From an uncultured bacterium (GTDB lineage: Bacteria; Hydrogenedentota; Hydrogenedentia; Hydrogenedentales; JAEUWI01), in contig CAXBPH010000061.1 of assembly GCA_963977445.1 (NCBI GenBank), positions 1 through 30,032 on the forward strand: a DNA stretch of 30,032 nt, read 5' to 3'. Numbering within the stretch: position 1 is the stretch's first letter; every line of letters begins with the position of its first letter. Positions 1 to 8,034 of this stretch are shown here, one piece after another. The notes under the pieces are model-generated. The model was not told the DNA's origin, searched no databases, and saw only the letters and a list, made by a program, of their open reading frames with translations. A program made the position numbers and the translations under genes.

Positions 1-54
1 TTCACCTTCACCTTCACCTTCACCTTCACCTTCACCTTCACCTTCACCTTCACC
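1..54 (-). repeat. Perfect hexamer tandem repeat (TTCACC)x9, encoding a (Gly-Glu)n linker on the minus strand; truncated by the window edge
   Basis: Positions 1-54 are nine exact TTCACC copies, in frame with the minus-strand CDS starting at 1125 (...LLTPLAGEGEGEGE). Confidence 0.97.
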
Positions 55-1125
55 GGCAAGGGGCGTCAAAAGAGCTTCACCGAAATTTGCAGACACGGGG
101 ACGCACCAGATACTGAGATAGGTGATCGTGGAGAGGTCAACACCACTGGGCACAGGAAACTGTAACGTCTCATTCACATAGGGCTCAGCACGTCGGAGAT
201 CGTCGGAGAGATTGACGCCCTCGGTGAGAGTCTCGTCGGCAAATCCGTAGAGGTGAACGTCGATCCCTGTTCCGTCAAAATTAAAGTTCTCGATTTCAAT
301 GGTGCAATTGTCGACGATGCGGGCCGTACCCGTGACTTCATGGAATCGGGTTGTAAATTCTCCCGATGCGCCCACATAGGCGTTGTCCGTTCCGCAATCC
401 TTCGTCGGTATTTCAAGGGCAATCTGGATGCGCGCCGCGTTGTTCGTTTCGTCTGACTCAAGAATATGATTGGCCGGGTCTACCTGAATTTCGAGCCAGT
501 AGGTGCCGGATTCGAGGTCAGTCACGTCGATCCACTGAAATTCCAGATTCTGAGAATAGATATCGGTCCAGCCGACGGAGATGCCGTGATTCCCACCATT
601 GGCCTGGAATCCGGACGCCGGACGACCGGGAAGGGAACTGTCATAGATGGCGGAGCTGGTTATGCGGACCGCAGGCTTTGCGCCAGTAGCGAGCACCTCA
701 CCGACGCCCTCATTCGGTAGAATTTCGCGGATGTTGTAGGCAACCCATCCCTCGGCTTCCATCATGAAAATAGACGGGTTGTAGAGGAAGTCACCGGCAT
801 CCCGGGTTCTTGGGTCGCCGACTTCCTGCTCGATTACCTGATTTACGGTTTGTCGCCCATTACCGCCATCTTCCCCGGTAGATGCGAGGAGAAAGGGGCC
901 TGCACCAATATTGGGCAGGGAAGAATTGAAGCGCAGCAGGGCTTTTCCCGGAATATGCTCTGTATCAAGTCGATTGGTATTCAGGGCCGTCGGGTCCACG
1001 ATCAGGTCGGGAAGGAGATCCTGTCCAAAGGCGCTTGTGCTGAGGCAGAGCAACACGAGGGCAGTAAGGGCTCGTCGGAGGGTTGTAGCGGGGATTAATG
1101 TGGTGAAGACGGAAGTGGTACTCAT
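1..1125 (-). CDS. Secreted multidomain protein, 3'-truncated: signal peptide + lysyl oxidase-like domain (no Cu-His motif) + DM13 domain + (EG)n linker
   Basis: Hand translation from ATG 1125-1123 (RBS GAGGT just upstream) is stop-free to position 1 (375 codons). Signal peptide: MSTTSVFTTLIPATTLRRALTALVLLCLSTSAFG. LOX motifs: LLPDL, LLRFNSSLPNIGAGP, GISVGWTDIY, QWIDVTDLESGTYWL, VDPANHILESDETNN. DM13 motifs: GEFTTRFHEVTGTARIVD, IENFNFDGTGIDVHLY, LSIWCVPVSANFGEALL. Confidence 0.9.
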   Translation of the reverse strand, partial: MSTTSVFTTLIPATTLRRALTALVLLCLSTSAFGQDLLPDLIVDPTALNTNRLDTEHIPGKALLRFNSSLPNIGAGPFLLASTGEDGGNGRQTVNQVIEQEVGDPRTRDAGDFLYNPSIFMMEAEGWVAYNIREILPNEGVGEVLATGAKPAVRITSSAIYDSSLPGRPASGFQANGGNHGISVGWTDIYSQNLEFQWIDVTDLESGTYWLEIQVDPANHILESDETNNAARIQIALEIPTKDCGTDNAYVGASGEFTTRFHEVTGTARIVDNCTIEIENFNFDGTGIDVHLYGFADETLTEGVNLSDDLRRAEPYVNETLQFPVPSGVDLSTITYLSIWCVPVSANFGEALLTPLAGEGEGEGEGEGEGEGEGE

Positions 1126-1159
1126 AGCTTTACCTCGATGGTGCCCGTTGAATTCTACT

Positions 1160-1256: not shown

Positions 1257-2165
1257 CTACTTGATTTCATGGAGCCCTTCGGTCATCACGTAGTGGTGCT
1301 CAATGGGCAGCTTTTCCATCCATTCCCGTACGGCGAGGGTCTTCCATGGACCGGAACCCTTCCCGCCGCCATTGTCGTTGTCCCAGAGCCACAGCGGGGT
1401 GGGCCAGAGGCAATAGCGGGCCCCAACGTGTTCGTAGAAGGCCTCGCTTACGCCGGCCTGACCGTGGTGGGCCATTTGGATGTAGTCCGCGTGAATTCGG
1501 TCGGAAAAGGGGCCTTTTAAGGCCTTATCGCCCCCTTCAACACCGAGATCGCCCGTGAAGAGGACGGATTTTTCGCTGTCAGAAATTCGAACGATAATAC
1601 TGGAGTTATTGACGCCGTTGGGGAGGATTTCGGGGTTCTTTGCGCCCAATACTTCGATTTGGACGCCGTCGATCTCCATTTCCTGACCGGGTGTGAGTTC
1701 CTCTACCATGCGATCGGCCGTTTTAAGGGTGTCGACGAACCAATGGTAGACTTTCTGCTCGCCCTCCGAGCCGTGTTGGTCTATCCATTCGCCACCGAGG
1801 AAGGAGCCAAAGATAGGCCCGATTTTCAATGCGCCAGGGGCTTTGACGAGCTCGCACAGGGCACTGAGGTGGTCGGAGTGGGGGTGGCTGATAAACCACG
1901 CGGCGACGTCGTTGCCCTGGGCTTCAAGAAACTTGGCGAGGTAGGGCGCGTCACCCACGTTGCCCCCGTCGACGACGATGAGTTTACCGTTGGGGGTCTT
2001 TATGACATACGACATCATCTGTGTTGGCGTTTGATTCGGAAGTTGCCACAAGGTGAATTTGGTCGGTCCCGTTGGCGAACTCGGTGTTGGGTTTTCGGCG
2101 GGGGATAGGGCGCAGAGGGCGATCGCCAGGGTCAACAAAAGCCCACGAAAAGACGAAATTATCAT
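1257..2165 (-). CDS. Secreted MBL-fold metallo-hydrolase (ComEC/Rec2-like C-terminal domain)
   Basis: Motifs SHPHSDH (HxHxDH), VVDGG, NNSSII, LFTGD and AHHG. A hydrophobic signal peptide follows Met at 2165; the ORF track starts at 2225. Confidence 0.85.
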   Translation of the reverse strand: MIISSFRGLLLTLAIALCALSPAENPTPSSPTGPTKFTLWQLPNQTPTQMMSYVIKTPNGKLIVVDGGNVGDAPYLAKFLEAQGNDVAAWFISHPHSDHLSALCELVKAPGALKIGPIFGSFLGGEWIDQHGSEGEQKVYHWFVDTLKTADRMVEELTPGQEMEIDGVQIEVLGAKNPEILPNGVNNSSIIVRISDSEKSVLFTGDLGVEGGDKALKGPFSDRIHADYIQMAHHGQAGVSEAFYEHVGARYCLWPTPLWLWDNDNGGGKGSGPWKTLAVREWMEKLPIEHHYVMTEGLHEIK

Positions 2166-2271
2166 GGTGTTGCACAATCCATACGTGTTGGGGGGAGTTC
2201 TCCCCAGGATTAAATATCGGACCAACCACCCATTGGGCGGCGGGTCCGATGGGGGTGATAGGGAAAAACTC

Positions 2272-3117: not shown

Positions 3118-4569
3118 TCAGGCGAGCAAGTCGTGTATTACGTTGCCATGCACGTCGGTGAGACGCATGTCCCGGCCACTGTAGCGATAGGTCAACTTGG
3201 TGTGGTCAAAACCGAGGAGATGAAGCATGGTCGCGTGGAGATCATGTATTTCCACGCGATTCTCCACGGCCTTGTATCCAAATTCATCGGTAGCGCCATA
3301 GACGATGCCCGGTTTGGTGCCCCCACCGGCCATCCAGATGGTAAAGCCGAAGGGGTTGTGATCCCGGCCGACGGTACCCTGGGCGAAGGGGGTGCGGCCG
3401 AATTCACCGGCCCATATCACCAGCGTCTCTTCCAGCAGTCCCCGGGACTTGAGATCTTTCAAGAGTCCGGCGATAGGCTGATCGACGGCCTTGGCGTTCA
3501 ACTCGTGATTGCTTACCAAATCACCGTGGGCATCCCAGCGGTCCTGGCCTTCGATGGGGGGGCAGGTCAGCTCGACAAATCGAACACCCCGCTCCACGAG
3601 CCGTCGGGCCAGCAGACACTGCATGCCATAGGAACGGGTATGTTCATACTCGGCTTCCATACCATAGAGTTTCTTGGTGGCATCGCTTTCGCCGGTGATG
3701 TCGACGAGCTCCGGCACCGCGACTTGCATGTGGTAAGCGAGCTCGTAATTGGAGATGGCTGCCTCCAGAGCGTCGTGGTGGCCCCGATACTTCATGGCGT
3801 TGGCGTCCAACTGCCCCACGAGATCCAGGAGGGGCTGTTGGGTCCCGGGAACCGATTCGGCAGGGGCGATGTTGGCCAGGGGATGTTCCTGCGCTTTCAG
3901 CAGGGAGGCCTGGTAGGCGGCGGGCAGGAAACCGTTGCCAAAGTTTTCTACGCCACCCGATGGGATGAGCCCGCCGTTGAGTACCACGAAGCCGGGCAGG
4001 TTCTGGCTTTCGCTGCCAAGTCCATACATGGACCAGGCACCCATGGAGGGACGTCCGACTTGACTGTGGCCCGTATGCAGAAAATAATTGGCCTGATTGT
4101 GTTCAGAAAAATTGGAAACCATGGACCGAATGATGGTCAGGTCATCGACGCAGCCACCGACATGGGGGAAAAGGTCGGATACGGGCGTGCCACTCTGGCC
4201 ATAATTCTTGAAGGCCCAGGGGCTTCCCAGGGTGGAGCCGTTGTTGTCAAACTGGGTGGGCTCCATCGTCATGGAAAAGGGCTTGCCGTTGTCCTGCGTA
4301 AGGCGTGGCTTCGGGTCAAAGCTATCCACCTGGGAAACGCCGCCATCCATATAGAGGAAAATAACGTTCTTGGCTTTCGCGGGGAAATGGGGCATGCCCG
4401 ACGACGTGGTAAGCGAGTCCACCGCGCCAAAAGCCTTATCGCCGAGAAGGGCACTGAGGGCTACTGCGCCAAATCCATTGGCACAGCGTTGCAGCATGGC
4501 CCGACGACTCAGGGGGGCGGGGGAGACGTGTTGGCTACATCCACAACCGGGCTGTTGTTGCTTACTCAT
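3118..4569 (-). CDS. DUF1501 domain protein (Tat-exported, sulfatase-like fold)
   Basis: SRRAML twin-arginine leader; AKNVIFLYMDGGVSQVDSFDPKP, CLLARRLVERGVRFVEL, WDAH, GEFGRTP, GRDHNP, DLHATMLHLLG. Confidence 0.93.
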   Translation of the reverse strand: MSKQQQPGCGCSQHVSPAPLSRRAMLQRCANGFGAVALSALLGDKAFGAVDSLTTSSGMPHFPAKAKNVIFLYMDGGVSQVDSFDPKPRLTQDNGKPFSMTMEPTQFDNNGSTLGSPWAFKNYGQSGTPVSDLFPHVGGCVDDLTIIRSMVSNFSEHNQANYFLHTGHSQVGRPSMGAWSMYGLGSESQNLPGFVVLNGGLIPSGGVENFGNGFLPAAYQASLLKAQEHPLANIAPAESVPGTQQPLLDLVGQLDANAMKYRGHHDALEAAISNYELAYHMQVAVPELVDITGESDATKKLYGMEAEYEHTRSYGMQCLLARRLVERGVRFVELTCPPIEGQDRWDAHGDLVSNHELNAKAVDQPIAGLLKDLKSRGLLEETLVIWAGEFGRTPFAQGTVGRDHNPFGFTIWMAGGGTKPGIVYGATDEFGYKAVENRVEIHDLHATMLHLLGFDHTKLTYRYSGRDMRLTDVHGNVIHDLLA

Positions 4570-4641
4570 GGCAAACTCTCCATATACTTCGAGTGACAGA
4601 CTGTCGTCAGCGGCATTCCGCGACGGGCAAAATCGTCACAC

Positions 4642-7600
4642 TTATCCAATGTAGATAAATTCTTTCAACATGAAAACGGTGTGGCAGAGGTCGGCCAAAA
4701 TCCGACTGTCCTGCCATGCATCGGCCTCGGGAACGTCATAAAGATGGGCCTGAGCCGCTACAAACTGGGACAGGGTATTGCGCTCTTCGTCCCGGGGGAA
4801 GCGCGCCAATGCAATTTCGAAAAGCCTGTCGATGACGGCGTCAAAGTTCTCTGGTGCGTTACCCAGCAGTCGTTCGCTGAGGACGCGTGCCTGTTCCACC
4901 ACAAAGGCATCATTCATCATGATGAGGGCCTGGGCTGGCAGATTCGAAACGGTACGGTTGCCAATGGTTGTGTCGGGCACGGGCATATCGAAGGCCATGG
5001 CGATGGGCAGGAGGTGATTGCGCCTTACTTCGAGATAGACCGTGCGACGCCGGTCACCATCCATAGGGCCGGAGACCGAAGGACTGCGGCGATTACGCCC
5101 AAAGGGTGGGATGTACGCGGGCACGGACGGCCCATACATGGTTGTGTTCAGATTGCCCCCCAATGCCAGCAGACTATCCCGGATGGCCTCACCCTCAAGA
5201 CGCAGCACCGGCATGCGGTGAAGGAGTACATTGGCGGGATCCTGGGTCTCGGATTCCGGGGAAACGGGCACGCTGCTCATGCGATAGGTCTCCGTCAGCA
5301 TGAGCACCTTGATAAGGTCTTTGGTGGACCAGCCGTTTTCCATAAAACGGGTGGCCAGGTAATCCAGGAGTTCGGGGTGGGAGGGTCGTTGACCCAAGGC
5401 ACCAAAGTTGTCCGTCGATGGTACAAGTCCCGTGCCAAACAAATGATGCCAGACGCGATTGACGTAGACCCGCGACGTGAGGGGGTTGGCTGGGTTTACC
5501 ATTTTGTCGGCGAGGGCCAGCCGGTCGTTTGCCTCATTCAAGCCTTCGGGCGCGAGGGCTGTCAGGAAGGCACGCTCCACGGTGCCATCTGTATTTCGGT
5601 GATCACCACGGATGAAATAAAGAGCGTCTTCCGGGGTGCCCGCCGTAGCCACGAGGGCCTTCACGGGCCCGACGATTTCCTCGTCAGAGCTGTTCAAGGC
5701 GACCCGCATCTCTTCCCGTCGCGCTACCGTATCGGCAGGCCACCAGAGTCCGCGCCGGAGCAGCAGTGCGGTCCAGGGATTTTCCGCGCGCAACGGTGCC
5801 GTCTCATTCTGTTTCCAGGCTGCTCGGAATACGCCTTCCAGACGAAGGGCGAGGTCATCCATTAGCAGACTCTTGATGGTGATGCTTTCCCCAATCAGAT
5901 CGGCCTGTTGGAGGCCGTGGGCTGGTGGTGGGGTGGGGCTGTCGCTGAGGATGATTTCGTCCACCGCGATATAGCCATCGGACTCGTCGATCAATTCAAT
6001 GTAGGCTTCCCTGCCCCGATACTTGCCGACCTGCTTGCCCATGGTGATCCAGATAAAGGACCCATGGGTGTCGCCGGTGTCCCGCAGGGTGTCGCCAAAA
6101 AGCAGGCCATTGTCCGGGGTGAGTTGGTAACCGTCGATCACCAGACGCATCCGTGCGTTTCGCCCGGCCACCCGGAAGTGTATGTAGTCGCAATCGATGG
6201 TGAAGTTGGGCGAGCGAAGTATGCCCTGAAGGTGCTCGGAATCCAGCCCACTGTGTACCACACCAGCCTGGACGGGATAGAGTTCTCCCTGAATGGGCGT
6301 CCACGCCACGTCGTGTGTGGGCTCTTTGCCAAAGGCATCGCCCGAGGGAAACCAGCCCTCGAAGGTGCCATCATCAAAGGTGGCAAAGGTACGATTAGAT
6401 GGGTCGGGCACGACTTCCGGTGGACTGGTCGTTTCTACACCGAGTGCCCGCGCTCGTTCGAGGAATTGACGTGTGTTTACGGAGCGGGCGGACTGGGCAA
6501 GCTGATTCCAGACGAAGAGGGGGTGGCTGGGCAGATTTACTTCCGGTTCGACGAGCGCTGCACGCCACCGGCCGAGCAGATTGGCATCCAGGCCCAGTTC
6601 CTCGGCTACTTTTTCGATGGGACGGCCCACTGGCTTCGCCGCCTTCGGCTCCCCGTCCGCCTTGGCTTCCGGCATGGGTACGCCATCGCTCGGTTTTGGG
6701 GTGTCATAGATGGATTTGGCCGCGCCCATGAGATAGGGCGCGATGGGCTGGTCGTCGATCGCGGGGACACCGTCGATAGTGGCACGGATGGCGCGACGTT
6801 GTTCACGAAGGAGTGCCCGCCGGGTGAGGGTGCCGGAATGGATTTTCTGTCCGGGATCAAGAAAGGCAATGGACTGGCGCGCGCTATAGAGGTGGCCCGC
6901 CATCGCGTAGTAGTCCCGCGCGGAAATGGCGTCGAATTTATGATCGTGGCACCGTGCGCAGGATACGGTCATGCCGAGGAACGCTTTGGACATGACATCC
7001 AACTGGTTATCGACACGGTCGGCCTGGTCCTGTTGCACGTCCACGGGCGCGTGGGTTGCCTGGTGCATAAACCAGAAGCCCGTTGCGAGTATGGATTCGT
7101 TGTAGCCGTCTTCCGGATGGTGACGGGGGGATTCGAGCAAGTCACCGGCAATATGCTCCCGAACAAACTGGTCGTAGGGCACATCTTCGTTGATGGCGCG
7201 AATTACATAGTCACGATAGGTCCATGCGTGGCGAATGGGATAGTCGCCTTCATGACCATGGGTGTCAGAATAGCGGACCAGGTCAAACCAATGGCGACCC
7301 CAGCGCTCGCCATAGGCGTTGTCTGCCAGCAATTCATCCAATACCCGTTCATAGGCGTCGGGACGGGTGTCATTGACAAAGTCTTCCACCGCCTGCGGCG
7401 TGGGGGGCAGTCCCGTAATGGTGAAATAGGCGCGTCGAATTAAGGTGCGTCGATCCGTTTCGGGTGCGGTGGCCAGCCCTTGGGCCTCCCGAGGGGCTTG
7501 CAGAAACTGGTCGACGGGATTGCCCTGAAAACGAGCGTCTTCCACGGTGGGGGGCGTCGGGTCGGTGATCGGCTGCCAGGCCCAATGCTCATCACGTCGC

Positions 7601-8034
7601 TTCTCGAGGTCAAAATCCTCGACAGCACTTTTGTTTTCAGGAAGTGCTTCATCGGGCCAGGGCGCGCCACGGGTAATCCACTCCAGCAGCAGGGTCGCTG
7701 CCGCGTCGGGCATCTTGCCCTTGGGAGGCATCTGGAGGTCTACGTTGCCATAGCCGATGGCGATACCAATGCGGCTACCGGCCGGGTCGCCTGCAATCAG
7801 CGCAGGGCCCGAGTCACCGCCCGAAAGAATGGTCTGGATGTGGTCGAGGCGAAGGCCACCTTTCTGCTTTTCTGCGCCGTGGCAGTCGAAGCAATATTGG
7901 CTCAAAACAGGGCGAATCTTAGATTCGAAGAAAGCCAGGTCTTCAGGGGATGCCTTGGAGACCATTGATTCTGCGCTGCTCGTGGTGGCTATCAGACCCA
8001 GCGCGACGCTGCCGAGGAAATGGAAATACCGCAT
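4642..8034 (-). CDS. Planctomycete-type cytochrome c / DUF1549 / DUF1553 (PSD1) protein
   Basis: Signal peptide; FFESKIRPVLSQYCFDCH heme motif; HWAWQP, YGERWGRHWFDLVRY, CARCHDHKFD; NPLTSRVYVNRVWHHLFG, PSHPELLDYLA, RLEGEAIRD, PAQAL. It sits directly upstream of the DUF1501 gene, the usual pairing. Confidence 0.93.
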   Translation of the reverse strand: MRYFHFLGSVALGLIATTSSAESMVSKASPEDLAFFESKIRPVLSQYCFDCHGAEKQKGGLRLDHIQTILSGGDSGPALIAGDPAGSRIGIAIGYGNVDLQMPPKGKMPDAAATLLLEWITRGAPWPDEALPENKSAVEDFDLEKRRDEHWAWQPITDPTPPTVEDARFQGNPVDQFLQAPREAQGLATAPETDRRTLIRRAYFTITGLPPTPQAVEDFVNDTRPDAYERVLDELLADNAYGERWGRHWFDLVRYSDTHGHEGDYPIRHAWTYRDYVIRAINEDVPYDQFVREHIAGDLLESPRHHPEDGYNESILATGFWFMHQATHAPVDVQQDQADRVDNQLDVMSKAFLGMTVSCARCHDHKFDAISARDYYAMAGHLYSARQSIAFLDPGQKIHSGTLTRRALLREQRRAIRATIDGVPAIDDQPIAPYLMGAAKSIYDTPKPSDGVPMPEAKADGEPKAAKPVGRPIEKVAEELGLDANLLGRWRAALVEPEVNLPSHPLFVWNQLAQSARSVNTRQFLERARALGVETTSPPEVVPDPSNRTFATFDDGTFEGWFPSGDAFGKEPTHDVAWTPIQGELYPVQAGVVHSGLDSEHLQGILRSPNFTIDCDYIHFRVAGRNARMRLVIDGYQLTPDNGLLFGDTLRDTGDTHGSFIWITMGKQVGKYRGREAYIELIDESDGYIAVDEIILSDSPTPPPAHGLQQADLIGESITIKSLLMDDLALRLEGVFRAAWKQNETAPLRAENPWTALLLRRGLWWPADTVARREEMRVALNSSDEEIVGPVKALVATAGTPEDALYFIRGDHRNTDGTVERAFLTALAPEGLNEANDRLALADKMVNPANPLTSRVYVNRVWHHLFGTGLVPSTDNFGALGQRPSHPELLDYLATRFMENGWSTKDLIKVLMLTETYRMSSVPVSPESETQDPANVLLHRMPVLRLEGEAIRDSLLALGGNLNTTMYGPSVPAYIPPFGRNRRSPSVSGPMDGDRRRTVYLEVRRNHLLPIAMAFDMPVPDTTIGNRTVSNLPAQALIMMNDAFVVEQARVLSERLLGNAPENFDAVIDRLFEIALARFPRDEERNTLSQFVAAQAHLYDVPEADAWQDSRILADLCHTVFMLKEFIYIG

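Follow-up and report, generated by a model that had tools for sequence, protein, structure and literature searches.

Human LOXL2 binds its metal through H626, H628, H630 and Y689 and its calcium through D549, L550, E722, D724, N727 and N728, and mutants of the copper site showed neither activity nor quinone stain (PMC5899467). Bacterial and archaeal lysyl oxidases (LOX) are already known (PMC4448552), and the archaeal HTU-LOX of Haloterrigena turkmenica is an active amine oxidase when refolded with copper (PMC6452851). His-less LOX sequences that keep the Lys and Tyr have been published from the red algae Cyanidioschyzon merolae and Cyanidium caldarium (PMC4448552, PMC6508830), and no activity assay for these red-algal proteins was found in the literature consulted, comprising the available parts of the same two papers. 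No publication on the bacterial clade described below, nor one that joins 'Hydrogenedent' with 'lysyl oxidase', was found in the non-subscription literature; the supplements of PMC4448552 could hold other His-less sequences.

In this study, a LOX-family gene was analysed in a window of 30,032 nucleotides (the whole stretch of DNA analysed, contig CAXBPH010000061.1) from an uncultured bacterium of the Hydrogenedentota. The protein is a member of the LOX family by descent and fold, and it lacks the HxHxH motif that defines copper- and LTQ-dependent lysyl oxidase (EC 1.4.3.13). Its fold, its calcium-site residues and its LTQ-position Lys and Tyr are in register with human LOXL2 (5ZE3), whereas the equivalents of H626, H628 and H630 are Ile, Met and Glu and the equivalent of the C657–C673 disulfide is lost; a bacterial signal, a DM13 domain and a Gly-Glu (GE) linker are found here, and SRCR in LOXL2. 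The protein shares secretion, single-copy occurrence and the same K, Y, D and Q with canonical bacterial and archaeal LOX, but those proteins keep HxHxH and KxSFC and the clade has neither motif; identity to canonical Hydrogenedentota LOX is about 35–45% over the domain. Red-algal LOXL is likewise secreted and has lost the His core while keeping K and Y, but it is eukaryotic and keeps six Cys (PMC4448552, PMC6508830), whereas the Cys pair of the clade is lost. We infer that the histidines were lost independently of the red algae solely from the closest relatives being canonical bacterial LOX, the tree having been built without the algal sequences.

Gene architecture and fold of the LOX domain

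The LOX-DM13 gene occupies positions 1..1125 of the minus strand, as delimited by Pfam matches and orthologue sequences; 375 amino acids were read from the ATG at 1125, and the contig ends inside the GE repeat. A GAGGT ribosome-binding-like site was read at 1132..1136 (−), 6 nt ahead of the ATG. Residues 1–34 (1024..1125, −), which end in SAFG, form a likely Sec signal peptide judged by eye, and the domain starts at the same place in homologues. They are followed by the LOX catalytic-fold domain (residues 35–240; 406..1023, −), a DM13 domain (PF10517; residues 256–352; 70..360, −; E 1.6e-16) that is a genus-level accessory module, and a Gly-Glu repeat linker (1..54, −) at the contig break, where the assembly stops. 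Same-genus orthologues run on through the GE linker to a hydrophobic C-terminal tail, with an EF-hand-like unit between them in most, which makes extracellular display of the LOX-DM13 protein probable. The closest named records are from Candidatus Hydrogenedentota (74% and 67%), and the ORFs of both are as long as those of two genomes from the genus and match them wherever segments were compared.

Two further DM13 copies were noted in the source genome. One, on contig C340, is 84.5% identical and fused to a large non-LOX domain; the other stands at the start of contig C244 directly after a GE repeat, with a tail as in the orthologues of the gene, and this contig may hold the 3′ part that the LOX-DM13 gene lacks. 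Gly-Glu codon repeats occur at 30 contig ends of the source assembly, the linker thereby breaking many surface-protein genes.

The LOX domain matched PF01186 with an E value of 4.7e-16 and 59.5 bits against a curated cut-off of 20.4. An AlphaFold model of the domain was built on a 103-row alignment (pLDDT 98.1), and a Foldseek search with this model gave LOXL2 (5ZE3) as the first match (E 2.7e-8). The same structure was the top match by VIA (Z 16.2, rmsd 2.6, 168 aligned; next match Z 8.2), and a search of the ESM Atlas returned LOX clusters only. A single-sequence fold of the whole protein had a pLDDT of 38 and was set aside.

The former copper-site stretch, F113-YNPSIFMMEAEGWVAYN-I132, was translated from 789–730 (−). 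In the profile of alignment A3, hxhxh falls on HRHYH of LOXL2, and the K and Y fall on the LOXL2 K and Y. Columns 119, 121 and 123 are His in 196/196 homologues that were chosen for having HxHxH, and because of this register and these columns the three ligands are read as replaced by I119, M121 and E123. All four His positions are replaced in the former copper loop N116-P-S-I119-F-M121-M122-E123 (757..780, −): the fourth, position 116, is His in 160/162 close canonical homologues and Asn here. The first His (human H289 equivalent) was present in 160/162 close canonical homologues; PMC4448552, as far as its text was available, gives it as absent from its sampled bacterial sequences. M122 occupies a spacer position and not a ligand position; being adjacent in a single beta-strand of the model, M122 and E123 probably face opposite sides of it.

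K150, the LTQ-position Lys (AAG; 676..678, −), is invariant in the clade (42/42; alignment and site rates), as is Y190, the LTQ-position Tyr (TAT, 558–556), within D188-I-Y190 (556..564, −; 42/42). In the AlphaFold model the strand ahead of K150 reaches residue 149 and K150 opens a loop. The segment after the Lys reads PAVRITSS (652..675, −) in place of xSFCLxDx, with the Cys lost and with V153 (40/42), T156 (40/42) and S157 (42/42) conserved in the clade. H180 (586..588, −) aligns with Gln in canonical relatives. The other His remaining in the domain are H57 (9/42 of the clade) and H220 (21/42), the latter in the segment ahead of the calcium-binding loop, and judged by sequence position H57, H180 and H220 offer no substitute triad. 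The motif P39-D40-L41 is present in the translation; its D40-L41 (1003..1008, −) corresponds to the LOXL2 calcium ligands D549 and L550, with Asp in 39/42 of the clade, and the ESDETNN calcium-binding loop (E223–N229; 439..459, −) keeps E223 and N229 in 42/42 and N228 in 41/42 (ligands after PMC5899467). The sequence-only reading had described the change of HxHxH to Ile, Met and Glu with the LTQ-position Lys (678–676) and Tyr (558–556) and the calcium-site motifs PDL and ESDETNN retained; all of this was borne out by the register against LOXL2, the translation and the clade alignment, and every coordinate and residue it gave proved correct on translation. It had also read PAVR in place of SFCL after the Lys: the replacement is real, and the exact equivalent of SFCL is A152-V-R-I155.

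The His-less clade and its distribution

Homologous domains were pooled, and 271 raw sequences were reduced to 255 without duplicates and to 249 after six shorter than 150 aa were dropped. These comprised 42 derived domains (non-identical, some being near-duplicates), 196 with HxHxH and 11 other non-HxHxH domains. In a tree of all columns with 165 rows, a single branch separated the 30 derived rows from all others (SH-aLRT 98), and after removal of the motif columns in a 97-row subset the 42 derived domains still formed one side of a branch (82, or 96 with P0045); both trees were quick ones made without bootstrap or outgroup. HxHxH occurs in 0/42 clade members, and His is absent from the whole of residues 112–128 in 23/42. 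The change in the copper site is a conserved feature of the clade.

Three early-branching members look intermediate. P0045 keeps the post-Lys Cys and Asp, and its loop retains one His; in P0016 and P0033 the post-Lys Cys is kept and S157 is already present. A second LOX group (P0019, P0020, P0090, P0108, P0149, P0155 and P0171) forms one side of a branch (98) and departs from HxHxH otherwise (for example RHLW, GHLY, GHLH), with Leu at 180, K and Y kept and the Cys after the Lys mostly absent; in this group the copper site appears to have eroded independently.

Among the matches listed, a LOX domain was found in 40/133 genomes of the class, the derived form in 17/133 (including 9/9 of the genus) and the HxHxH form in 23/133 (one interrupted by an internal stop and another partial), and no class genome had both forms; 504 weaker matches lay beyond these, and those shown hit a C-terminal repeat. 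Each of five genomes tested, one of them a one-contig genome, had a single PF01186 match; the derived form thus replaces the canonical gene and does not accompany it, and an inactive paralogue beside an active copy is thereby ruled out in these five genomes. COX1 was present in 17/17 derived genomes and in 22/23 canonical ones, the exception being a genome 83% complete. This heme-copper oxidase in all 17 derived genomes means that the hosts have given up neither copper nor oxygen, and an anaerobic or copper-avoiding host is thereby ruled out as the explanation. In one canonical HxHxH gene (G104:C32, L111) an internal TGA splits the domain. Two records titled Nitrospirales (L004 and L007) match the LOX of same-order genomes (L080 and L096) in every compared segment, and these titles, or the genome bins, may be mislabelled.

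Conservation and selection around the former copper site

The codon model gave an omega of 0.062 for nine genus sequences, and omega = 1 was rejected (lnL −3566.1 vs −3998.0). Pairwise values were 0.017–0.071 for six genus pairs with pS < 0.5, 0.040 for a seventh close pair (pS 0.56), 0.15–0.21 for ten more distant pairs (dS > 1.1, near saturation) and 0.040–0.086 for four canonical pairs. The wider-set values (derived 0.067; canonical 0.014–0.040) are dS-saturated, and no relaxed selection is claimed from them. Simple decay of a dispensable gene would fit the patchy presence of LOX (40/133 genomes with any match, among the matches listed), the free variation of positions 119–121 across the clade and the internal TGA of one canonical relative, but the low omega, the presence in 9/9 genus genomes and the newly invariant residues make it scarcely credible. 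The sequence-only reading had argued from the clean frame against simple decay and had proposed a dN/dS test and a homologue alignment for M-x-E, K and Y. The first argument is upheld by the omega of 0.062 and by the invariant K and Y, whereas the alignment supported K and Y (42/42) and not M-x-E as a clade character, position 121 being variable and E123 present in 34/42. Loss of catalytic residues under purifying selection is one mark of a pseudo-enzyme, and the lost His triad with an omega of 0.062 shows this pattern.

Invariance in the clade (n = 42) extends to 19/202 columns, including K150, Y190, D188, Q197, S157, W127, E223 and N229. Lys or Arg is the most frequent residue in 15 columns, and of these K150 alone is invariant; K150 and Y190 changed 0 times over a total tree length of 18.3 substitutions per site, and the Lys was never replaced by Arg. 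Both are kept in 249/249 domains, including the 11 non-HxHxH domains outside the clade. Newly fixed residues against the canonical forms are S157 (42/42; Asp in 181/196 canonical), M122 (40/42), V153 (40/42; Phe in canonical), T156 (40/42) and E123 (34/42). H116 and H119 are gone from the clade, as are both Cys (positions 154 and 175), and most members also lack H121; 33/42 domains have no Cys at all. Fourteen of 19 clade-versus-canonical shifts lie in segments 116–123, 152–157, 175/180 and 187, around the old site, these segments having been named after the data were seen.

Retention of K150 and Y190 whatever the His state, in 249/249 domains, would be expected if the two residues only hold the fold together, through a salt bridge or a hydrogen bond; the domain would then be an inert calcium-stabilised beta-sandwich that serves as spacer or adhesin with its working surface elsewhere. 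The domain core also resembles CARDB and Ig-like surface domains (Pfam and fold search), and the calcium loop is intact. Against this, S157 and T156 are newly fixed, most of the shifts cluster at the old site, the LOXL2 site is described as surface-exposed (PMC9659206, in its available part), and omega does not clearly exceed the values for close canonical pairs; we consider a purely structural role unlikely. On sequence grounds, the retention of K and Y in all 249 domains and in red-algal LOXL would fit a structural role common to all of them, or a cross-link that has been retained, just as well as it fits a binding pocket.

The positions expected to carry metal ligands are more variable. Position 121 is His in 14, Met in 13, Arg in 8, Lys in 5 and Leu in 2 of the 42 domains. 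Positions 119 and 121 evolve at the pace of ordinary columns, with 15 and 13 changes on the tree where the median column has 10; by rate they rank 122 and 114 among 202 columns. E123 is replaced by Q, Y, D or A in 8/42, position 180 is His in 29/42 and Gln in 12/42 (His in 5/196 canonical), and no His is found at 119, 121, 123 or 180 in 8/42. Arg or Lys occupies position 121 in 13/42, and 121 or 154 in 36/42. Covariation of H180 with R154, H121 or E123 came down to one independent pair on starred branches. In the genus, M121, M122, E123 and H180 are fixed in 9/9 with synonymous change, a pattern that a metal site would also be expected to give, and H121, E123 and H180 together with R154 in 9/42 form a plausible 2-His-1-carboxylate set by sequence. 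No ligand set for an alternative mononuclear metal site, of the 2-His-1-carboxylate or Met/His type, was conserved across the clade, and the Met/Met/Glu(+His) set is, at the sequence level, a feature of the genus (9/9). The sequence-only reading had offered a pseudo-enzyme or a new Met/Met/Glu(+His180) metal site: the former fits the data best, and the latter holds within the genus but loses its residues over the clade (M121 13/42, E123 34/42, H180 29/42), leaving it weakly supported. If the clade has one function, that function cannot depend on a fixed set of metal ligands at the copper position.

An intramolecular isopeptide bond (Lys-Asn/Asp-Glu) was also considered and dropped, N154 being present in only 11/42.

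Candidate functions of the domain and their significance

A Lys-Tyr quinone or cross-link might still be made in this Hydrogenedentota lineage without the His triad, either at a reconstructed metal site of Glu, His and Met (E123, H180 and Y190, joined by M122 or by a His or Met at 121) or with the help of an oxidant acting in trans, giving an amine oxidase or dehydrogenase of new chemistry. The unchanging K150 and Y190, with Lys never becoming Arg, would suit it, as would the frequencies of E123, H180 and M122, all fixed in the genus, and the nine domains that combine H121, E123 and H180 with R154. The strand-then-loop arrangement at K150 in the model resembles the productive arrangement described in the available part of PMC9659206, and the domain is fused to DM13 in the genus and to GSDH in P0029, the latter being the one high-scoring hit in a search for longer fused forms. 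The absence of a clade-wide ligand set, with 8/42 domains lacking His at all four positions and 8/42 replacing E123, speaks against it, and so does the genomic context. DM13 was absent from the 8 non-genus derived loci examined, and the 84.5% identical copy on an unrelated non-LOX protein of the same genome makes a dedicated electron-partner role for the module a weak proposal. No ORF of at least 120 aa with the Fe-S motif CxxCxxCxxxCP or CxxxCPxG was found in 19 neighbourhoods of 3–16 kb, and in the neighbourhoods examined no neighbour was common beyond the genus except one pilin-like pair and one ABC-ATPase-like match. On this evidence we regard a quinone made without the triad as rather doubtful.

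A conserved partner gene was sought and rejected, since the SDR, DUF1501, PSD/cytochrome, sulfatase and MBL-fold neighbours are common only within the genus. The upstream MBL-fold gene (PF00753; window 1257–2225, −) is a stand-alone ORF here, and its counterpart in a relative (L001:1875–4820) is the C-terminal part of a 982-aa protein. A DUF1501 and PSD1/PSCyt2/PSCyt1 gene pair (window 3118–8034, −) is syntenic within the genus; such a pair is ordinary for planctomycete-like genomes.

Metal-free, non-redox catalysis may be proposed by analogy, as Lys/Tyr dyads do Schiff-base chemistry in class I aldolases. K150 would then act as the Schiff-base nucleophile and Y190, E123 and S157 in acid-base roles, in a lyase-, aldolase- or ligase-like reaction on an extracellular substrate, and an invariant Lys, an invariant Tyr and a newly invariant Ser in the old active-site segments would be in keeping with this. 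The fold search found no such enzyme and there is no operon context, so that this alternative appears quite improbable.

Our leading, though tentative, reading is that the protein is a copper-free, LTQ-less pseudo-LOX whose old active site has been rebuilt as a polar binding pocket on the cell surface. A secreted LOX-fold domain in a lineage without the copper histidines would likely bind no copper and make no LTQ. LTQ should not form, because its biogenesis is held to need His-bound copper; without the triad, Tyr190 would not be oxidised by bound copper and oxygen, and no Lys-Tyr quinone would result. The pocket would instead be lined by a free Lys amine, a Tyr hydroxyl, the new S157 and T156, E123 and usually an Arg or Lys at 121 or 154, and might accommodate a glycan, a peptide or some other polar and probably anionic ligand. 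The signal peptide, the GE linker and the hydrophobic tail would display the domain outside the cell. This binding-pocket reading is favoured because the Lys never becomes Arg and new polar residues are fixed beside K150. Against it, the neighbourhoods examined held no conserved neighbour or partner that hints at the ligand.

Matched natural pairs of canonical and His-less LOX exist within one order (23 and 17 genomes, respectively, among the matches listed), together with an apparent series that retains some His or Cys (P0045, P0016 and P0033). The lineage thereby allows a test of whether the Lys-Tyr cross-link forms without the triad, or of the role a LOX fold takes once oxidation is lost. 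If a quinone is made without the triad, LTQ would be reached by a new route, and the canonical sister enzymes of the same order would serve as controls. If the protein is inactive, it would be a well-documented bacterial pseudo-LOX; if active, it would represent new cofactor chemistry.
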